Assembly (NCBI GenBank): GCA_021432655.1
Contig: MU271300.1
Coordinates: 47,651 to 82,867, forward strand
Length of the DNA: 35,217 bases
DNA from: Atractiella rhizophila
Taxonomy: Eukaryota
Direction: 5' to 3'
Shown: positions 6,992-20,987 of the stretch, in pieces
Layout: each line of letters starts with the position of its first letter
How positions within the stretch are numbered: the first letter of the stretch is position 1
Position numbers and translations under genes: made by a program
The notes under the pieces: model-generated
What the model saw: the letters and a program-made list of their open reading frames with translations, nothing else
Databases searched by the model: none
Told to the model about the DNA's origin: nothing

Positions 6992-7598
6992 ATGTCGCGT
7001 TCTATCGACCAACTTTCTCACAGAGAATTCGTTTCTCAAGTTCCTGTGTTTCCACCCTGTTCCTTCCCCTGTAGACTTGATACATAGTTTCTTTTGGACA
7101 ATATCCATCTATCTCTCATTCTGAACGCTTTTGCGTCCGTTCCTTTCCATCTATTCCCCTGCTGTGGCCTGTGGGAGCGTGAACATGCACATGAAGCAAT
7201 TTTTGCCAAGAATTGAGAGCCATGTTGTTCGATTAACTTTAGTGACCATCAACATAGATACCTCGACCACCTCCAGCGGCAAAATAGCCAACAGCTCCTC
7301 TCGGACGACACTGAAGCGGCCCTGAAGGCTGAGATAAGGTGAAAAAGGCGACCGAGGAGTTTTCCACGACGCCCTCAAGTGTGCTGTGTGGTAGTTAACT
7401 ACGGGGACAAAAGCTCAGCATTGCAGTGCAGTGCCACCGAGGCATTACTTTATTTTATACCGTACGCCCCTCTTTTGAACGTGCAAGGTCAAGCTGGAGG
7501 CTCCACGAGTCGTCGAACCGCCTGCGACCAGTGGAGTGAAGAAAGAACGGAGGGTCTCTCGTTCGCCGTCTATCGAAGTGCTCGCCTCGTCCTTTGAG

Positions 7599-7619
7599 CA
7601 GCAGCAGCAACAACAGCAG
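7599..7619 (+). repeat. (CAG/CAA)7 microsatellite just upstream of, and in frame with, the fusion gene ATG
   Basis: cagcagcagcaacaacagcag. Confidence 0.8.
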
Positions 7620-7664
7620 TCAGCGTCTTCAAATAATTCCAACAACTATTTATTGGAGAAAAGG

Positions 7665-10600
7665 ATGTCTCTCCGCTCTTATCTCACAGGTTCCTCCAAA
7701 TCCTCTTCTTCCCAGTCGTCTTCCTCTCAACCAGCTCCGAATTCGACACCGCCGAAGCCTCCAGCGCAAAAGACGATTTCGAGCAGCACGAGTGCGAGGG
7801 AGAGGATAGAGAGATTCAACCAACGTTCGCGGCCTTCATCCATCGTCGGTCCGCCTTCTTCCACTCCTCCCAATGGGACGAATGGAAATCCTATCCTCAC
7901 TTCACACAAAATAGCGGCCTCCTTATCAAGGAAGCCTTCGGTCAAGTCTTCCGTTCAGGCTATGAGTTCAAGTGCGAGCCCGGTCACGGAAATGAAGGAG
8001 TTGAAGGAAGAGGATTTTATCATGCCGAAGGAATTGAAGGGCAGTGAGCTCCCTCCTCTCGTCGTTTCTGCAAACGGTCCGGCGAACGGACAAATGCACG
8101 TCAGTGGGTCGTCGTCGTCCGCTCTCCCTCCTCCGTCGAGGAACGAACCAGCAAAGGAACTTGCTACTCCTCCGGTCCCTATTCCTGCTCCTGCGCCGAC
8201 GCCTGCTCCTGTTCCAACAACCGGCCTCACAATTCCAACAGAAGTATTTGTTCAAGCTCCAACACCTGTCGTCGAGCCGAAACCGTCGCTCCCAGCAGTT
8301 GCCCCTACAGCTCCCCCCACCACAGAAGAGAGACAACAAGACACCCTCTCTCCTGACTCACAGACGCAAGCTTCTCCTCAAACCCTTCAGCGATCGGGCT
8401 CTCTCTCACGCTCGGGCTCCCTTTCTCGCTCTGGCTCCCTCTCCCGCTCGCACCAAGGCCGTTCCAGCATCTCGTACAAATCCACACCATCGAACGTCGC
8501 AGTTCAACCCCCAGCTCACACACTTCCCGTCACCCCTCTTGCTCAGACTCAATCCCAGCCGCAGGTGGGTGAGAGTCACCCGATTACGTCGGTGATCGAT
8601 ATCTCAAAAGTGCATCCCGCTTCCTTTGTGGGCAGTCATGCCCACGACCACCATTCCGAAGCATCGACCAGCACAGCCGCCGAGGGTGGACATCAGTGGC
8701 TGGTGGTCATTATACCGCCGATGCATTTGCCGCACGATCCACCTGCCCATGGAGTTCACAGTCTGGGATATGGCCCCGCGGCGAAGTTTGGAGGAGGAGT
8801 ATTGCTCAGGCTGGAGAGGACTGTCCGTGTTCCTCCCTCTTTATGTGGAGGAGAAAGCTAACGCGAACAATTTCACGGCATAGATGAACCAACAGCTAAC
8901 GAGTATCGCTCGCGCTTTCTCCCTTCCATCAATCATGGGTGTCGCACTCTACCTTAGCCTTCCACCCCCAATGCCAATGTATCCAATGATGGGAATGGGC
9001 GGCGGGATGGGCGGGATGGATGGCATGAACATGGAGTTCGGATTGAAACCTCGGCTGAGTGAGGAGATTTGGTCCGCAGTTTGGGCTGGCCTCTGGGACG
9101 GAGAAGCAGAGGGAACAAGTCCTACCAAGGCTCCTGGCGCCGCAACTGCGATGGGAGGAATGGGCATGCACATGATGAACATGCAGCCGATGCAAGGGAT
9201 GGGAGGAATGGGAATGATGGGAATGGGATGGGGCGGATGGCGGATTCGTAAGTTCTTATGTTCTTTAGTTCAAAAGGCATGAGTTGACAATATTCCGTTA
9301 TGTGTACAACAGCGATCGTAGCACGTCTTGAATTTGACATCGACACTCGGAAAGCTCGCTGGTACGAGCAGTGGCTCGCCAACGCAGGTCCTCATCAGTC
9401 AATACCCCACCACCCTCAACAAGCTTACCCTCAGCACCCTCAATACCGAGCCTCTCGATCCACTTCTTCCATCTATCGCTCGTCCATGGACATGAGAGGA
9501 GCGAACGTGCATGGTGTCATGGGTGATGGCGAGATGCTGAACAACCACGATTCCCCTTCCAAGCGACACGATGGGCTCGTGCCTATCGGCGCTGGAGGAG
9601 GAGTGAGGAAGATGTATCTTACAGGGGAAGACGGCTCGCCGGATCTAAAAAGGAGCGGAAGCCAGAAGAAGCTCTCGCTCCTTGCAGCGGGCAGGGCCGC
9701 TTATCTTACACGGTCGGACAGTGGATGGGGGAGACGAGGTCATTCAAAAAATCCTTCCCTTCAGGAGGTTACAGAGCCCGACTCCGGATTTGTTGATACC
9801 GCTGGTACCACCACTGCGATGGATGGAATGACAATGCGCGACGTGGATGGGAAGAAGATTCCAATTTCAAAGGTGTGGACCGGCCCCGTCGCAGGTCCTA
9901 ACGGTGAAGAACTGGTCGATGAACTCCTCGACTCCTGGCCTCCCACTCCTGATTCCCCAGACCGTCTTCCATCTCCAGATCTTGCGGAAAGATTGATGGG
10001 AGCTCTCTCTACCCCCGCCTTGCTGAATATGAATGGGACGTTCGGAAGGCTGCACATGGACATGGTGGGTGAAGGAAGGAGGAGAGAACCTGAACTCGAG
10101 ACCCCCATCGAGACTAGGAGGAAATACTTAGCTTGGGAGCGCAGGCCAATGCATCTTGTTGGGGTTGACCGGGAAACAGAGAGCAGGATGAGGCAGTTGA
10201 AGGATATCAGTGAACCGACGCCGACTCCAAAGGAGAAAGAAGAGTTCCAAGAGGTTCAGAAGAGACAGCTGATGAAATTGGGAATGGTGGAGGAGGGAGA
10301 GGAACAATTGGTACAGGGAGAACATCAGCATGACAGGAGGACGAGCGCTGCCGAATATCCTAGGAATCTCTATGAGCTCTACTTGGCTCAGTATCCCAGT
10401 TTCAACCTCTATCCGAAAGGCATCGTCATTAATCTACCCTTCGACATGAAACAGAAGCAGTTCTTCCAACGATATCCCCTCAACCTCTACCTGACCTACC
10501 CACCAGTACGAGCATCTTTGTATCCGTTTACGGGACCCATCATCAAGGCACCAGATGTGCGATACATGAAAGTGATCAACTCAGAGACTCGCTATCCTCT

Positions 10601-13574
10601 TGATCTCTATCAGCTTTATCTTGGGGGTGCTCCAAAGCTCTACTATGTTCGAGGACCACTTTACCGCCAACCTCAAGGACCGCCGCCTCCCCCAAAACGG
10701 TACCCGCTTAACCTGTACCAAATCTATACGCCTCAGTTCCCTCGACTTTTCCTCATTCGCGGTCCCCTTGTTAAAATCCCCGACGTTGCCTACATGAAGG
10801 TGCATGCTTCTGACATCCGATACCCTCTAAACCTCTATTCCATCTATCCTGCTCCTTTCCCCACCCTCTTCAACGTTCGTGGACCTCGTATTGTACCCGT
10901 TCCGCCTGCACCACCAGTGAAGGATCGCCTTCCTTATCCCAGGAATTTGGACAACCTGTACCCTTCAGGCTACCCTAATTTCAAGCTCTACCCGAAACCT
11001 CGCGAGATCGACTTGCCTTTTGACATCAAACAGAAGCAATTCTTTGAACGATACCCTCTCAATCTCTATTTGACGTACCCACCAGTTCGACCGTCGCTGT
11101 ATCCCTTCACTGGACCAATCATTAAGGTGCCGGATGTACGGTACATGAATGTCATCAATTCTGGGACAAGGTATCCGTTGGATCTGTATCAGCTATACGT
11201 GGGATCTTCTCCAAAACTCTACTTCGTTCGAGGGCCCCTCTATTGCCAACCAAAGGGACCGCCCGCACCTCCAAAACGGTACCCACTCAACTTGTACCAA
11301 ATTTATGAACCCCAGTTTCCTCGACTGTTCCTCATTCGCGGCCCATTAGTCCAAATACCCGACATCTCCTACACCAAAGTCCATGCGGCCGATGTTCGTT
11401 ACCCTCTTAATTTGTATTCTATCTATCCCGCTCCATTCCCAACGCTCTTCAACGTTCGGGGACCACTTGTTGTACCCGTTCCCCCGGCAAAACCTGTCAA
11501 GGAGAAACTTCCTTACCCAAGGAATCTCTACAACCTTTATCCTGCCGGATACCCCAACTTCAAGCTTTACCCCAGTGGAGTAGTAATCAACTTACCTTTC
11601 GACATGAAACAAAAGCAGTTTTTCGAACGGTATCCTCTCAATCTCTACCTGACGTATCCGCCTGTGCGACCTTCGCTGTACCCCTTCACCGGACCGATCA
11701 TCAAAGTGCCTGATGTGCGATACATGCAAGTTGCAAATGTTCATGTTCGGTACCCCGTTAATCTGTATCAGCTTTACCCCGGATCGTCTATCTTTTTCAA
11801 TATTCGAGGCGCTCTCTACCCCCCAGTCGGCACCAGAATATCGACAGAAGCTGTTCCTGAATCTGCTGCGGAGAACGAAGAGTTGGAAATGGAGCCTCCT
11901 TCCCCGACCCGCCTCCCTTCTGCCGATCTAGCGGGCAGATTAGCGGGAAGTATCCCACCAACAGCAGTTCTAGACGGACACTTCCAAATTCCCGAGAAGC
12001 AATATCCTCAATACGAAGGTGCGCGGAAGGAGAATGACATGGAAGATCGCAAGTACAAGTGGAAGATGGTGGAAGCTGATGGGGAGGTAAAGCAAGTACC
12101 ATTAGCCATTCACTCGCTCGACACTCCAGATAGGGAGGCGGCAATGGAGCAGGAGCAGCGGAAGAATATGACGAAGATAATGGTAGATGACGGGGAAGGC
12201 ACAAATAGGCAGCTAGTCCTCAGTCCCGATGAGCCACGACCCCCCGTCCAACGTCCATTAAGCTCCAACAATCCCTATGCCAAGATGGTAGATGCTCCCC
12301 TGGAATCGGGGCATGTTCCAGAACCTCTGCGAGTGGAGATTGACGACAATCGAAATCCGTTTGACGATGACGCCGGACCGACAAGTGGAGTGGAAGAAAT
12401 CTCCTTTTCTCCGGTATGAAACTCTCCGTCTTCTCTAAAGTTTTTAATAAGTTACTAACTCCTCTCCTCAGCCCGGCACACCTGAAATCCCTTACAGTCA
12501 ATCACCTGATACCATTTCTGACGGTGTTTTAAGCGCCAACGATCCGCGTTTCCAGATGGGTCTCATGCAAACGTCGAACGGTCATCTTGACGTCGGCCCA
12601 TACGGTGCCAGCTCTAACGGGTTAACTTCCCCAAGATCACCAGGAGCCGATTCTGATGTTTCTCAATACGCCACGGTTTACCCAAGATCGGAAGAAGGTA
12701 TCACAGCTTCATCTGCAGAACTACCTCCTTTCGGGGATTACCCAGATCCAGTTGTCTTCTCTTTCAATCAACAAGATGAGCTCTCCGAAGCCCTCGCAGA
12801 ATTCGTGCTCGAAGCTCAAAATCAGTCCATCCGTCTGCGTGGGCGCTTCACAGTGGCCCTTTCCGGTGGCTCGTTACCCAAGCTGATGACTCCCGGACTG
12901 ATCGAGAATCCTCGAGTACAATGGGACAAATGGATTATCTTCTTTGCAGACGAACGCCTCGTTCCCCTAGATCATCCCGACTCCAACTACAAATCTTGGA
13001 TGGATCAACTTCTGGCTCACGTTCCTCTTGACGATTGGCAAATTCGCAACATCAGGCCTTACGACGAGCTGGAGACCAAACCGGGAGACGTTGCAGAGCA
13101 AGTTACTGAAGCTTATGAGGCTTCCCTCACCGAGGTGTTTGGAACCATGGAAAAGGCACCTGTTTTTGATCTAGTGCTTTTGGGGATGGGCGAGGATGGG
13201 CACACTGTGAGTTTCCCAATCAGGAATGAAAATTGGGGGCTAATGGCTTTATGAAGGCATCGCTTTTCCCTGGTCACCCCCTCCTTAAAGAGCAGGAATG
13301 GTTCGTCGTTTGGATTGGAGATTCTCCCAAGCCTCCGTCTTATCGCATCACCTTCACATATCCAATGATCAACAGTGCAAGACGAATAGCTTTTGTAGCC
13401 ACAGGTTCCGGAAAACAGGCTGCTCTCCGTGATGTGCTCGAGAATGATGAATCTCAGTTACCAGCGGCGATGGTTAGGTTGAGAAATCATCCTATCGTTT
13501 GGTTCGTAGACGAAGCCGCCAGCCAAGGGACGAACTACACGCTTTCTGCTTTTTGGGACGAAGAAGATCAGTGA
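7665..13574 (+). CDS. Giant (~1,891 aa) fusion protein: disordered Ser/Pro N-terminus + uncharacterised domain + Tyr/Pro repeat array + C-terminal 6-phosphogluconolactonase domain. Exons 7665-8822, 8884-9247, 9313-12413, 12472-13206, 13257-13574
   Basis: Four GT-AG introns all preserve frame (phases 0,1,0,0) and give one open frame of 5676 nt; intron 3 has a clear ACTAAC branch point and CAG acceptor. The 6PGL domain reads FTVALSGGSLP, DERLVPLDHPDSNY, FDLVLLGMGEDGH|TASLFPGH, DSPKPPSYRITFT, ATGSGK. The start codon is uncertain because the frame is open upstream to 7479. Confidence 0.8.
8391..8450 (+). repeat. 18-nt coding tandem repeat encoding (RSGSLS)3RS
   Basis: cgatcgggctctctctca cgctcgggctccctttct cgctctggctccctctcc cgctcg: codons differ, peptide identical. 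Confidence 0.85.
10356..11825 (+). repeat. Coding higher-order tandem repeat: 579-nt (193-aa) unit x ~2.5, each made of five 36-40 aa monomers starting YP[RLV][ND]L[YD]
   Basis: YPRNL starts at 10356, 10935 and 11514 (exact 579-nt spacing); monomer lengths 39+40+36+40+38=193 aa; 13 monomers in total, the last truncated. Confidence 0.97.
12740..13574 (+). other. 6-phosphogluconolactonase (SOL/DevB, glucosamine-isomerase fold) domain within the fusion gene
   Basis: Family motifs SGGS, DER..P..H..SNY, LLGMGEDGHTASLFP, PKPP..RIT and ATG..K are all present. Confidence 0.95.
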
Positions 13575-14029
13575 TCTAGGAAATGTTCTTGACTTGCATG
13601 ATGTTTGACGTTTGTACGCTTGATCACGCCTTCTGCTAAGTTAGACGTATTCGATTCTCTTTCACGTACCACTTTATCACTTTGACAAAAGTTTAACGAG
13701 TATATTGGAATGTAATTTTTTCGTCACAGCCACTGCCAATAAGTACCTTGAGGGTTGTGATCTTAAGGAAAGTCAACTTGATGTTTGAGAGTACCCTGAC
13801 CGGTTGTTTACTTTGGCAACACTTTCAACTGGAGGCAACCCGTAACTAGTTATAGCCTGACCTCCGACTCCTCACTCCCTCGGCACTCGAGGATTAATGT
13901 ATCCCCAATAAAGATCAACTTGTGAGAATACAAACACGTGGACTGAGAACAGGGTGAAAGAAGCTCATCCACCTTGCCAGTGGCATCAGTGATAGTTGGC
14001 GAAACCTGGGGGAAAAGGTCTAGAAGGTA

Positions 14030-18254: not shown

Positions 18255-20987
18255 ATGAGCAGCCAGAACTACCAGGGAGGGTCCCACAATGACGATCCAT
18301 ACAGCAACTACGGGTATGGGGAAACGAGCGACTGGCGTGGAGGTCATAAGAGGCACTATGATGACGCGGGTGGGCACTACGGGGGAGGCTTCAAAAGAGG
18401 ACGGTATGAGGACGTGAGTTCTGCAAATACGTCCCACCTTGTCAATTGAGAGGTTGAACCGGTGTTCTCTTTTTCAAAGGATCAACCCTCATATCGAGAT
18501 CGAGGAGAGCGTGATTTTGGACGGGGTGACTTTGGGGAAGGAAGGGGTCGAGGAGGTGGGAGGGGGAGGGGAGGGTACAAAGGAAGGGGAAACCCTTCTC
18601 TTTGGATGCAGGACCAACAGGCTTTCCAGCCTGAGGGACCTTACTCCAACGACCGTTCAGATGCCAAAGGCCGTGATCGTGACCGACATGACCTCTCTCC
18701 TCCTTCTCAATCAGTCATCTTCCTCGGTCTCCCAATAACAGTCGATTCTGAGCAACTCCGACAATATCTTGAATCTCTTGGCGCGGTTGTCGACTCTACA
18801 GTCATCATTGTGGACAAGATGACGGGACTTTCGAAGAGGTTTGGTTTCGCCAAGTTTGGCAGCGTCGAGCATGCGAGAAGCTTCGTAGAGCCCAATTACC
18901 CTTTTATTAACTGGCCAGATGAACTGGGAGAGAATTGTAGGGTAAAAATTGACTACTCGCAAAGTCAGGAGAAGGGCCCGAGAGGAGTGATGGTTGGAAG
19001 TCACGGTGAAGGAGTGTTGCGACCTGTTGCGGGAACAGAGGATATTCCAGGTGCGCTATTGCTGTCTCACTCCTTATTCGAACTACAAGACGTATGCAGA
19101 GGGTGCTGTCGATCGAACGCTGCTTGTCAACGATGGGACGAGGGATATCGGCACTGCCCCCAGCCATGTTCTCCTTGTTCGTGGCCTTGATCCTCTGACT
19201 ACCGACCAAGAAATCTGCGATTCCATTCTTGGAATAACTCAACTGGAAGCCATACGGAATGGAGGCTTGAAGCAGATTCGGGTGATCAAGGACAGAATGA
19301 CGCGAGCGAGCTGGGGGTACTGTTTTCTCGTATTCACTGATGTTCAAGTCCGTATCCCTCTTCGTTTCTCTTTTACCCCTTAAAACTATTGTGGATAGCT
19401 CGCATCTCAAGTACTGGGCTTCATCCTCAATCCCCAAGCATTTCCTACAGGATTCCGAGTTCGCCAATCACCCGTCGCCGTTTCGTTTTCTCACGGCAAT
19501 TCCTTCATCCCGGTTTATGCCTACACCGATCAAGCTTTCAACTACAACGGCACGATGCTTCGCTACTGGGATGAGAAGGCCATGACGTCCATCAAGAATC
19601 TGGTAGAGGATGCAGCTCCCAAACCGAAGCCCAAACCTGCAGAGGAAGACGACGACCTTGCTGCGCTCCTCGACGAGTTGGACGATCTCCCACCTCCTCC
19701 AGCAGTTCCAGCGAAGGAGACAGAGCCATTGAGTCTCGAAATCGTCGGTGGCATCAAGAGTTCTGTTCCTATCGGACCCGAGATCCCTCTGAGCCGAATA
19801 CCTCCTCCTCCTCCATCCACGGCCGACATTCCCCCTCCTCCTCCAACCGCAGTGACGCAGCCGCCAGCCATGCAGGAACCGAAGCCGGTCGTAGAGAAGA
19901 TGCAGCCTATCAAGCTGACTGCGAAAACCACAGACCCAACAGCGACACCGAAAGGTTTGTCCTTGATTTAAGTATTTCGAGCCCTAGGCTCATGAGGTTT
20001 TTTCTAGTAGCGGAGAAGAAGGCAAAACAACCTGCAGCGGATAAAGAGCAGATGGTCGGTGCGCGCAAGGTTAGCACAGTCTGCTTGATTGTTTGAGAGC
20101 AGATAGTAACTCCTTTGGGACAGACTGCGGCAACGATCAGCAAGTGGAATACTAAGAAGCAAGAGTTGGCTTCGAAGCCAACGGGCAGTGGGAAGCCCAG
20201 TGGATCTATAGTAGTCTTCCAAGCGTCGCCCCTTCCGAGTTCTAACGTTCGTGCCTGTCACTCAGCCGACCGTTGCTCCTTCCTCCTCGAACGCTACACC
20301 CATTGGCTCCAGCTCGACTCCAACAGCCGAAGACGAATTCGAATACGCTGATACCAGCAAAATGTCCTGCCTCCTTTGCTTACGACAGTTCAAGACGCTC
20401 CCCGAGTTGAAGAAACACAACGAGCTTTCTGCTTTGCACAAGGCGCGTTCATTCCTGATGCTATGATCGTTCTAATACCATTCGCACAGACTAACTTGCA
20501 AGACGCATCCAAGGTATCTGCAGCAAAAACCCGCAAAGGGAACGTGACACCAAAAACAGAAGCTCCAAAGTACCGTGATCGTGCTTTGGAACGGCGAGAG
20601 GCTTATGGTCAGCCTGACAAACCGGAGATTGAAGCAAAGTCGTCGAAGCGACAAGAAGCCCCTCCACCGCCTCCCGTGCAACCCAATAAAGAAGGTATCG
20701 AGGAAAATAACAAGGGAAGTAAGATGCTTGAGGCGATGGGTTGGAATAAGGGACAAGGACTCGGAAGTACACAAAGCGGCAGAGTGGATCCCGTCATGGC
20801 TTATTCCCATGCTCAAGGAGTCGGTACGTCCATTGCCACTCTTTGGTTGAAGGCTTTGTTCATGGAATCGGTGCCAGGATTGGGAGCTGTTAAGCCGACG
20901 TTGGCTGGACAGTATGAAGACACTGCACGAGGGTACAGCCAGAAATCGAAGGATAAGGCGAGGGAGCGGTTTGAAAATACATCTTAA
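18255..20987 (+). CDS. RBM5/RBM10-like splicing regulator (2 RRM + C2H2 zinc finger + G-patch), multi-intron
   Basis: RRM1 SVIFLGLP..KRFGFAKF; RRM2 HVLLVRGL..SWGYCFLVF; CLLCLRQFKTLPELKKHNELSALH; KYRDRALERR; G-patch NKGSKMLEAMGWNKGQGLG; ends ARERFENTS*. Confidence 0.92.

Follow-up and report, generated by a model that had tools for sequence, protein, structure and literature searches.

A 6-phosphogluconolactonase domain in one spliced reading frame with a member of an uncharacterised Basidiomycota protein family in Atractiella rhizophila

6-phosphogluconolactonase (6PGL) catalyses the second step of the oxidative pentose-phosphate pathway and is generally treated as a small, soluble housekeeping enzyme. 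In yeast, the 6PGL paralogues Sol1 and Sol2 carry N-terminal extensions of tens of residues and have no detected lactonase activity, and gene fusions to disordered partners are in general not rare. According to the excerpted text of PMC3148214, the known fusions of 6PGL are to glucose-6-phosphate dehydrogenase (G6PD), the preceding enzyme of the pathway, as in Plasmodium GluPho, in Giardia and Trichomonas and in animal H6PD (PDB 8em2), and the 15 fungi surveyed there have single, unfused 6PGL genes. Here we describe a gene within a 35,217-nt stretch of DNA of Atractiella rhizophila (the window; all coordinates are window positions on the + strand), in which a complete 6PGL domain forms the end of a spliced reading frame of 1,891 codons. 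A. rhizophila is a root-associated fungus, and among the matches listed the literature that names it consists of community surveys or taxonomy.

Five open frames lie on the + strand (7479-8861, 8884-9282, 9288-12419, 12451-13254 and 13230-13574), and the short gaps between them carry fungal splice signals. An earlier reading of the bare sequence (the original prediction) had proposed that these frames join into one frame of ~1,891 aa through four frame-preserving introns. Accordingly, the exon join 7665-8822/8884-9247/9313-12413/12472-13206/13257-13574 amounts to 5,676 nt or exactly 1,891 codons, and its sole stop is terminal. Intron 1 (8823-8883, 61 nt) has GT..AG ends, intron 2 (9248-9312, 65 nt) reads GTAAGT..CAG, and intron 4 (13207-13256, 50 nt, GTGAGT..AAG) sits within the DGHT|AS motif of the 6PGL domain. 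The junction that makes the fusion is intron 3 (12414-12471, 58 nt, GTATGA..ACTAAC..CAG). If it stays unspliced, the frame ends at a TGA at 12417-12419, 4 nt into the intron; with the intron removed the frame is preserved, and the 28 codons ahead of the first Met of exon 4 are open.

For the splicing of these introns, 22 sequencing runs matched the locus, and four of them (X1, X2, X8 and X12) were examined, all as assembled contigs. X8 and X12 are recorded as metatranscriptomes; the RNA status of X1 and X2 is only guessed, though their contigs lack the introns. Intron 3, whose removal had been predicted, is spliced out in three of the four runs (X1, X2 and X8), each belonging to a different study, with 94-255 nt on the shorter contig side of the joint. 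A 1,073-nt contig of X2 thus joins 11760-12412 (653 nt of exon 3) to 12471-12890 (420 nt of exon 4), and a contig of X8 joins 12270-12412 to 12471-12651. Intron 4 is removed in the same three runs, intron 2 in two (X1 and X2) and intron 1 in one (X1), and all four joints in the RNA contigs have GT..AG ends. No contig keeping intron 3 is listed among the four runs, although contigs drop rare isoforms. Run X12 has exon 3 contigs up to 12408 and no cover over 12604-13708, and counts neither for nor against a separate scaffold transcript.

Moreover, three other checks agree with the spliced contigs. The Pfam profile PF01182 is cut precisely at intron 4, with profile positions 2-142 matched in exon 4 (E 4.6e-39) and 143-225 in exon 5 (E 3.8e-25), out of a full profile of 225. 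At the other end of the gene, an N-terminal domain (N-domain) that is continuous in Agaricomycete homologues is covered successively by the last part of exon 1, by exon 2 and by the first part of exon 3 (alignment A4), and therefore introns 1 and 2 are checked independently of the RNA; the join of exon 1 to exon 2 agrees with this alignment. Finally, 40 differences of the RNA contigs from the window are listed, with 35 more besides, and 33 of the 40 are synonymous in the fused frame. Among them are both listed differences (12522 and 12546) in the stretch of 84 nt that separates intron 3 from the first Met of exon 4, which the public gene model described below would leave untranslated. In the linker ahead of the 6PGL domain, all listed differences (these two and 12615, 12654 and 12690) are synonymous. 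We conclude that the fused frame is both transcribed and spliced, and that it evolves like coding sequence.

The 6PGL domain occupies 12748-13571 (aa 1634-1891, 258 aa) across intron 4. It had been predicted to be intact, with SGGS, DER and DGHTAS motifs, and the full-length profile match as well as the alignment to solved 6PGLs bear this out. A hidden Markov model (HMM) built from 116 stand-alone 6PGLs matches aa 1633-1885 over HMM positions 10-258 of 260 (E 1e-102). The full domain also matches 16 solved sequences of 6PGL, DevB or H6PD at E <= 1e-10, the best being 3oc6_A (4.7e-30), with H6PD at E 1.4e-24. The motifs SGGS, DER, G(D/E)DGHTAS, RIT and GxxK are all present and align to the same columns of 3oc6, 4tm7 and 3ico; we take these columns to be the substrate-binding and catalytic ones of the structure papers on the T. 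brucei and T. maritima enzymes. The domain is nearer to 6PGL than to glucosamine-6-phosphate deaminase, as all 16 solved matches are 6PGL, DevB or H6PD and the listed named hits are 6PGL or Sol homologues. In its whole length and its motifs it is like the stand-alone fungal 6PGLs (yeast Sol3/Sol4 type; 3oc6, 3ico, 2j0e), with ~50% identity to basidiomycete enzymes. Those enzymes are free and 250-290 aa long, whereas the Atractiella domain is preceded by ~1,630 aa in the same spliced frame.

To place the domain, a quick IQ-TREE phylogeny of 43 6PGL domains was calculated. Of these domains, 39 were chosen manually among the 120 best of 1,790 hits; the remaining four rows were the 6PGL parts of the window protein and of three long proteins considered below (P0160, P0005 and P0008). 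In this tree the Atractiella domain forms a group with Leucosporidium and one environmental sequence (SH-aLRT 95). The group adjoins the rust-fungus clade, and the end branch of the Atractiella domain, at 0.69, is not among the long ones. Judged from the sequences, this position is the one expected of a Pucciniomycotina housekeeping 6PGL orthologue. A second Atractiella 6PGL was absent from the 120 best of the 1,790 hits, which is weak evidence as the genome itself was not searched. The C-terminal lactonase would still hydrolyse 6-phosphoglucono-delta-lactone.

In the public record only this end of the gene is found. Exon 4 matches a 319-aa 6-phosphogluconolactonase of A. rhizophila at NCBI (P0029) with 100% identity over 87% of the exon, and the next-best matches have 47-53% identity. 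The 319-aa model begins at Met 12565, within exon 4, which leaves ~65 residues ahead of the domain. These are without counterpart in other 6PGLs, whose matches span ~62% of exon 4; among the matches listed, stand-alone basidiomycete 6PGLs are mostly 257-260 aa long. A protein covering exons 1-3 was found neither by phmmer among 1.84 billion representatives nor by a profile search of a 5.8-billion set. The phmmer search, which had exon 3 as the query, returned 10 matches at E <= 1e-3, none of them at E <= 1e-10 and none a self match, so that they serve as leads only, and an ESM Atlas search with exon 3 gave no usable match. Therefore, the public set seems to hold only the tail of the gene, and ~4.7 kb of coding sequence (7665-12413) seem to be unannotated. 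Comparative studies based on the public protein set would miss this gene.

The bifunctional G6PD-6PGL proteins resemble the Atractiella protein in that 6PGL is fused to a larger partner. However, their partner is G6PD, whereas exons 1-3 of the Atractiella gene match no Pfam family at E <= 0.01, hence no enzyme domain and no G6PD domain (PF00479/PF02781). This agrees with the original prediction of a non-enzymatic partner of ~1,600 aa. That partner had been regarded as an unknown one-off, which we have to correct, since a profile search and blastp of the N-domain reveal a Basidiomycota-wide family. On these matches, the N-terminal 1,540 aa are assigned to this uncharacterised family, which has no Pfam model. 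Its named members (P0161-P0164) come from Rhodocollybia butyracea, Trametes coccinea, Hermanssonia centrifuga (P0163) and Phanerochaete carnosa, are 1,263-1,645 aa long and are all labelled hypothetical protein. The features that the family shares with the window protein, and which the weak phmmer matches of exon 3 display as well, are the N-domain, a WP(P/S)TPxSPDRLPS module and arrays of Tyr/Pro-rich units. In the four Agaricomycete proteins the N-domain, RLPSPD-type motifs and YP-rich arrays follow in the same order as in Atractiella. They differ in having no 6PGL, repeat units of the YPxFDIYPAVYP type and no Met/Gly-rich insertions. At their C-terminal ends P0162 and P0163 share one short motif, of which P0164 has a close variant; P0161 is partial and ends inside the repeats.

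The N-domain spans 8682-9386 (aa 340-532) across introns 1 and 2 and ends in (I/V)EFDID..ARWY. In a blastp search with the spliced protein, aa 340-532 matched P0162 96-228 at E 6e-20, P0163 at 5.5e-18 and P0161 at 5.9e-17, with a range of 6e-20 to 4e-10 across the four named members. An AlphaFold2 (AF2) model of the P0163 N-domain reached middling confidence (pLDDT 61.8, pTM 0.62). Foldseek with this model found no match at E <= 0.001; the weak rows were mostly USP7 UBL, PB1, RA and FERM F1 (best E 0.08, TM ~0.4), which is a lead only. The N-domain would be small, folded and possibly ubiquitin-like. An ESM Atlas search with the P0162 N-domain returned only unnamed Basidiomycota clusters. Residues 340-532 contain 17% G and 12% M, and the two Met/Gly-rich insertions of the Atractiella domain (8968-9240, aa 415-505, MGGMG-type runs) are absent from the four Agaricomycete homologues.

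The SPDRLPS module, with the consensus WP(P/S)TPxSPDRLPSxxLxxRL and, ~50 residues on, LIExD...PL..S.PSP, is present in two copies, starting from aa 714 and aa 1368. Module 1 (9930-10226, aa 714-812) contains DSWPPTPDSPDRLPSPDL, followed by a second conserved patch ending in SEPTPTP. Its alignment (A2) has 15 invariant columns across six sequences, and over 22 aa it is 82% identical to the corresponding stretch, DDWPPTPPSPDRLPSPDL, of the environmental protein P0160. Module 2 (11892-12125, aa 1368-1445) has its motif at aa 1370 and matches P0160 932-1028 by blastp (E 3e-6). A motif scan based on alignment A2 gave at least 596 pattern matches with two confirmed loci (L001 and L002), so the 9-residue pattern alone is unspecific. 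L002, a high-GC prokaryote-like contig with 31% identity and E 8e-6 among the candidates, was itself judged to be a false positive.

Between the two modules lies the YP-repeat array (10353-11825, aa 855-1345), in which a regular expression recovers 13 units of the type (R)YPxNLYxxY and which contains 18% P and 12% Y. A 579-nt (193-aa) super-repeat at 10392-11849 is present in three copies of 100/74/62% nucleotide identity, the third of them partial, with five YP units in each complete copy. This arrangement points to growth of the array by tandem duplication within this lineage. By blastp the array matches the repeats of P0149, P0150 and P0154-P0156 (E 1e-15 to 1e-8), its unit consensus differs from the Agaricomycete type, and modules and repeats are common to P0149-P0164. 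The remainder of the scaffold is rich in Ser, Pro, Gly and charged residues.

As to conservation of the fusion in basidiomycetes, which had been left as a question by the original prediction, the fusion is not general, as none of the four named Agaricomycete members has a 6PGL match with the 6PGL HMM; a recurrence in two environmental relatives was found nevertheless. Both P0160 (with P0006 and the contig L001) and P0151 are like the Atractiella protein in that 6PGL or a 6PGL-like sequence, YP units and SPDRLPS modules share one frame. P0160, found as a cluster mate of P0006, is a protein of 1,343 aa in a single open frame that is cut at both ends. It carries an intact 6PGL (HMM E 2e-90) followed by four YP units and DDWPPTPPSPDRLPSPDL, and thus differs from Atractiella in that 6PGL precedes the repeats. 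The metagenome contig L001, near-identical to P0160, encodes the two parts in the same direction, and its frame is broken at ~1666-1679. P0151 (898 aa, single open frame) has YP repeats and RLPS modules, after which a 6PGL-like domain begins (E 3.5e-9 with the HMM and 3e-9 by blastp, but only 0.061 in Pfam); the model stops ~100 residues into this domain. Unlike in Atractiella, the SGGS and DER columns are lost, with SGGS replaced by PPQL and DER by DQS. A faint match of P0157 to the C-terminal part of 6PGL (E 0.44) was dismissed as chance.

The 6PGL of P0160 nests in the rust clade beside Phakopsora (SH-aLRT 87, inside a clade at 100), and a tree forcing the P0160 and Atractiella domains together was rejected (AU p 5e-8; the pair was named after the tree had been seen). 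This rejection and the opposite domain order make independent joins of 6PGL in the Atractiella and P0160 lineages the simpler reading of the sequences; the alternative would be an old single fusion with later rearrangement. In the rust fungi, two Melampsora 6PGL models are flagged as partial, without Met, and the Phakopsora model has 377 aa and runs ~70 residues past the usual end (P0055, P0078, P0082). Rust 6PGL genes may belong to larger genes.

Altogether, 28 long proteins with a 6PGL domain were found, most of which join it to unrelated partners in one or two records each. The fused models P0001-P0005 and P0007-P0012 were set aside as support, as their partners are porphobilinogen deaminase, Arf, PXA, beta-helix and myosin and they are likely annotation merges. 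Such long, merged-looking models come from fungal and oomycete annotations, and for the Tulasnella model P0005 the 6PGL part has a nearly identical stand-alone counterpart, an environmental protein of 298 aa.

Our results probably describe one A. rhizophila gene whose 1,891-aa product has an ordinary, catalytically competent 6PGL as the C-terminal domain of a scaffold-family member. The scaffold would consist of the small folded N-domain, long disordered stretches with SPDRLPS-type motifs and the Tyr/Pro-rich array. The full-length protein would be made as such, and its scaffold, through the N-domain and the linear motifs, would determine the site or the complex in which the enzyme acts. The original prediction further proposed that the scaffold may be structural or condensate-forming. 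The case for the fusion is built on the spliced RNA contigs, the kept frame, the synonymous differences and the recurrence of the same partner family. Several points weigh against it. The public annotation has 6PGL as a separate gene. Nor is the link an obligatory one, since all four named Agaricomycete members are without 6PGL and stand-alone enzymes make up most of the basidiomycete 6PGLs. The two intact fused 6PGLs are not nearest relatives and their domain order differs, so that common descent of the fusion is unsupported. Long 6PGL models with unrelated partners are common and look like merges, and therefore a fused model alone is weak evidence. Besides, the RNA nature of X1 and X2 is only a guess, the support for the fusion is at the RNA level, and assembled contigs are blind to transcript starts, ends and rare isoforms, so that a 6PGL-only mRNA from an internal start may exist as well. 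An AF2 model of two YP super-repeats, calculated without an alignment, had a pLDDT of 35.7 and is uninformative on fold or disorder.

An alternative is two functionally separate genes, with the scaffold normally ending at the TGA at 12417-12419, through retention of intron 3 or a transcript end at this place, the 6PGL made mainly from its own promoter as the 319-aa protein and the spliced form being a read-through (conjoined) by-product. We regard this as rather unlikely. The in-frame stop only 4 nt into intron 3 and the public 319-aa model fit such an arrangement, and stand-alone 6PGL is the rule in fungi, both among the matches listed and in the excerpted text of PMC3148214. The mean word depth in X1 (17.7 over the 6PGL part versus 8.39 over 11511-12253) points the same way, but such figures cannot rank gene parts and were not used. 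However, the spliced form was assembled in all three runs that cover the junction and no intron-retaining contig is listed; since rare variants drop out of contigs, the rarer form at this junction is probably not the spliced one. An independent 6PGL gene is also at odds with the frame kept over intron 3, the 28 open codons before the first Met, the two synonymous differences out of two listed in this pre-Met stretch and the 65-aa leader without counterpart in other 6PGLs, and the same two kinds of sequence share single open frames in P0160 and P0151. That the fusion is an artefact of a mis-assembled window or of chimeric RNA contigs is extremely improbable. It is true that k-mer assembly can produce chimeric sequences, and that the Logan contigs are short and derive from mixed samples, namely metatranscriptomes of root and soil. 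Yet three runs, each of a different study, show the same joint with exact GT..AG ends, the branch point ACTAAC and 94-255 nt on the shorter side. These data also have the three remaining introns of the gene spliced out, and in the genomic window itself both parts lie 58 nt apart in compatible frames.

The fusion could also be real with a 6PGL fold that binds or senses sugar phosphates, or acts as a non-catalytic module like Sol1/Sol2, instead of being the lactonase of the cell; a second, free 6PGL gene elsewhere in the genome would then be responsible for metabolism. Non-catalytic use of the fold exists in the family, given the P0151 domain without SGGS and DER. Sol1 and Sol2, without detected activity, are likewise 6PGL folds that are extended at the N-terminus and may have a role outside metabolism, but their extensions measure tens of residues against 1,600 here, and the Atractiella domain keeps the catalytic-type columns. 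We consider this very unlikely, as every conserved 6PGL column is kept, the domain has the tree position of a housekeeping orthologue on an end branch that is not long and, as weak evidence, no second Atractiella 6PGL was among the best hits. A catalytically competent 6PGL at the end of the scaffold is the reading that we prefer.

The locus joins a known enzyme to an undescribed family, in an architecture that is new and has RNA support. In the literature searched (main texts; for one query the best 10 of 647), neither a 6PGL on a non-enzymatic scaffold nor the scaffold family is described, in line with the original claim that no characterised protein has this architecture. A join to a 1,600-aa, largely disordered and motif-rich scaffold is different in kind from the G6PD fusions. 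As the same components are joined in other lineages, in another order and once in a degenerate form, the fusion provides a Rosetta-stone lead on the scaffold family, and it is the first testable functional lead for this Basidiomycota-wide family without a Pfam model or annotation. The recurrence of the join, including the decayed active site, suggests that the family has a working relation with the 6PGL step or its metabolites. As a whole, it may work with the pentose-phosphate pathway or with lactone/6-phosphogluconate intermediates. A farther-reaching proposal, which we hold to be unlikely as a whole, is that the family members are devoted to organising or regulating the oxidative pentose-phosphate pathway, for instance as a docking platform gathering G6PD, 6PGL and 6PGDH or as a sensor of the lactone or 6-phosphogluconate. 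The 6PGL would then have been captured at least twice independently, C-terminally in Atractiella and before the repeats in a rust-like lineage, and in a third lineage it would have decayed to a ligand-binding pseudoenzyme. In the Atractiella cell, the only 6PGL would then be found nowhere but at the end of a ~205-kDa protein.

The remaining features of the gene are as follows. Exon 1 (7665-8822, aa 1-386), defined by the open reading frame and its ATG and at its 3' end by the spliced X1 contig, is Ser/Pro-rich over aa 1-339 (S 20%, P 15%) and then contains the start of the N-domain. Exon 2 (8884-9247, aa 387-507 plus 1 nt) encodes the middle of the N-domain with its two insertions. Exon 3 (9313-12413, aa 508-1541) ends in phase 0. 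It completes the N-domain and contains disordered stretches, the YP-repeat array with an SPDRLPS module on either side and the beginning of the linker. The linker (12126-12747, aa 1446-1633), acidic and Ser/Pro-rich by composition, spans intron 3, so that exon 4 (12472-13206, aa 1542-1786) holds its remainder and the first part of the 6PGL domain. Exon 5 (13257-13574) holds aa 1787-1891 and the TGA stop, beyond which contigs continue to 13660-13684.

The ATG at 7665 is the first in-frame ATG downstream of the stop at 7476-7478, and the true start could sit in an additional upstream exon. Ahead of this ATG the frame of exon 1 is open for 62 more codons (7479-7664), which are Ser-rich with a poly-Gln run, and a contig of run X2 falls somewhere in 7300-7520. 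Within the Ser/Pro-rich N-terminal region an 18-nt tandem repeat (8394-8450, 3.2 copies) gives SGSLSR three times. Elsewhere in the window, neighbouring frames, none of them for a pentose-phosphate enzyme, carry PAP2 (152-808), RRM (18450-19190) and G-patch/RED (20352-20987) domains, whereas Pfam gave no match for seven further large frames translated as single exons.

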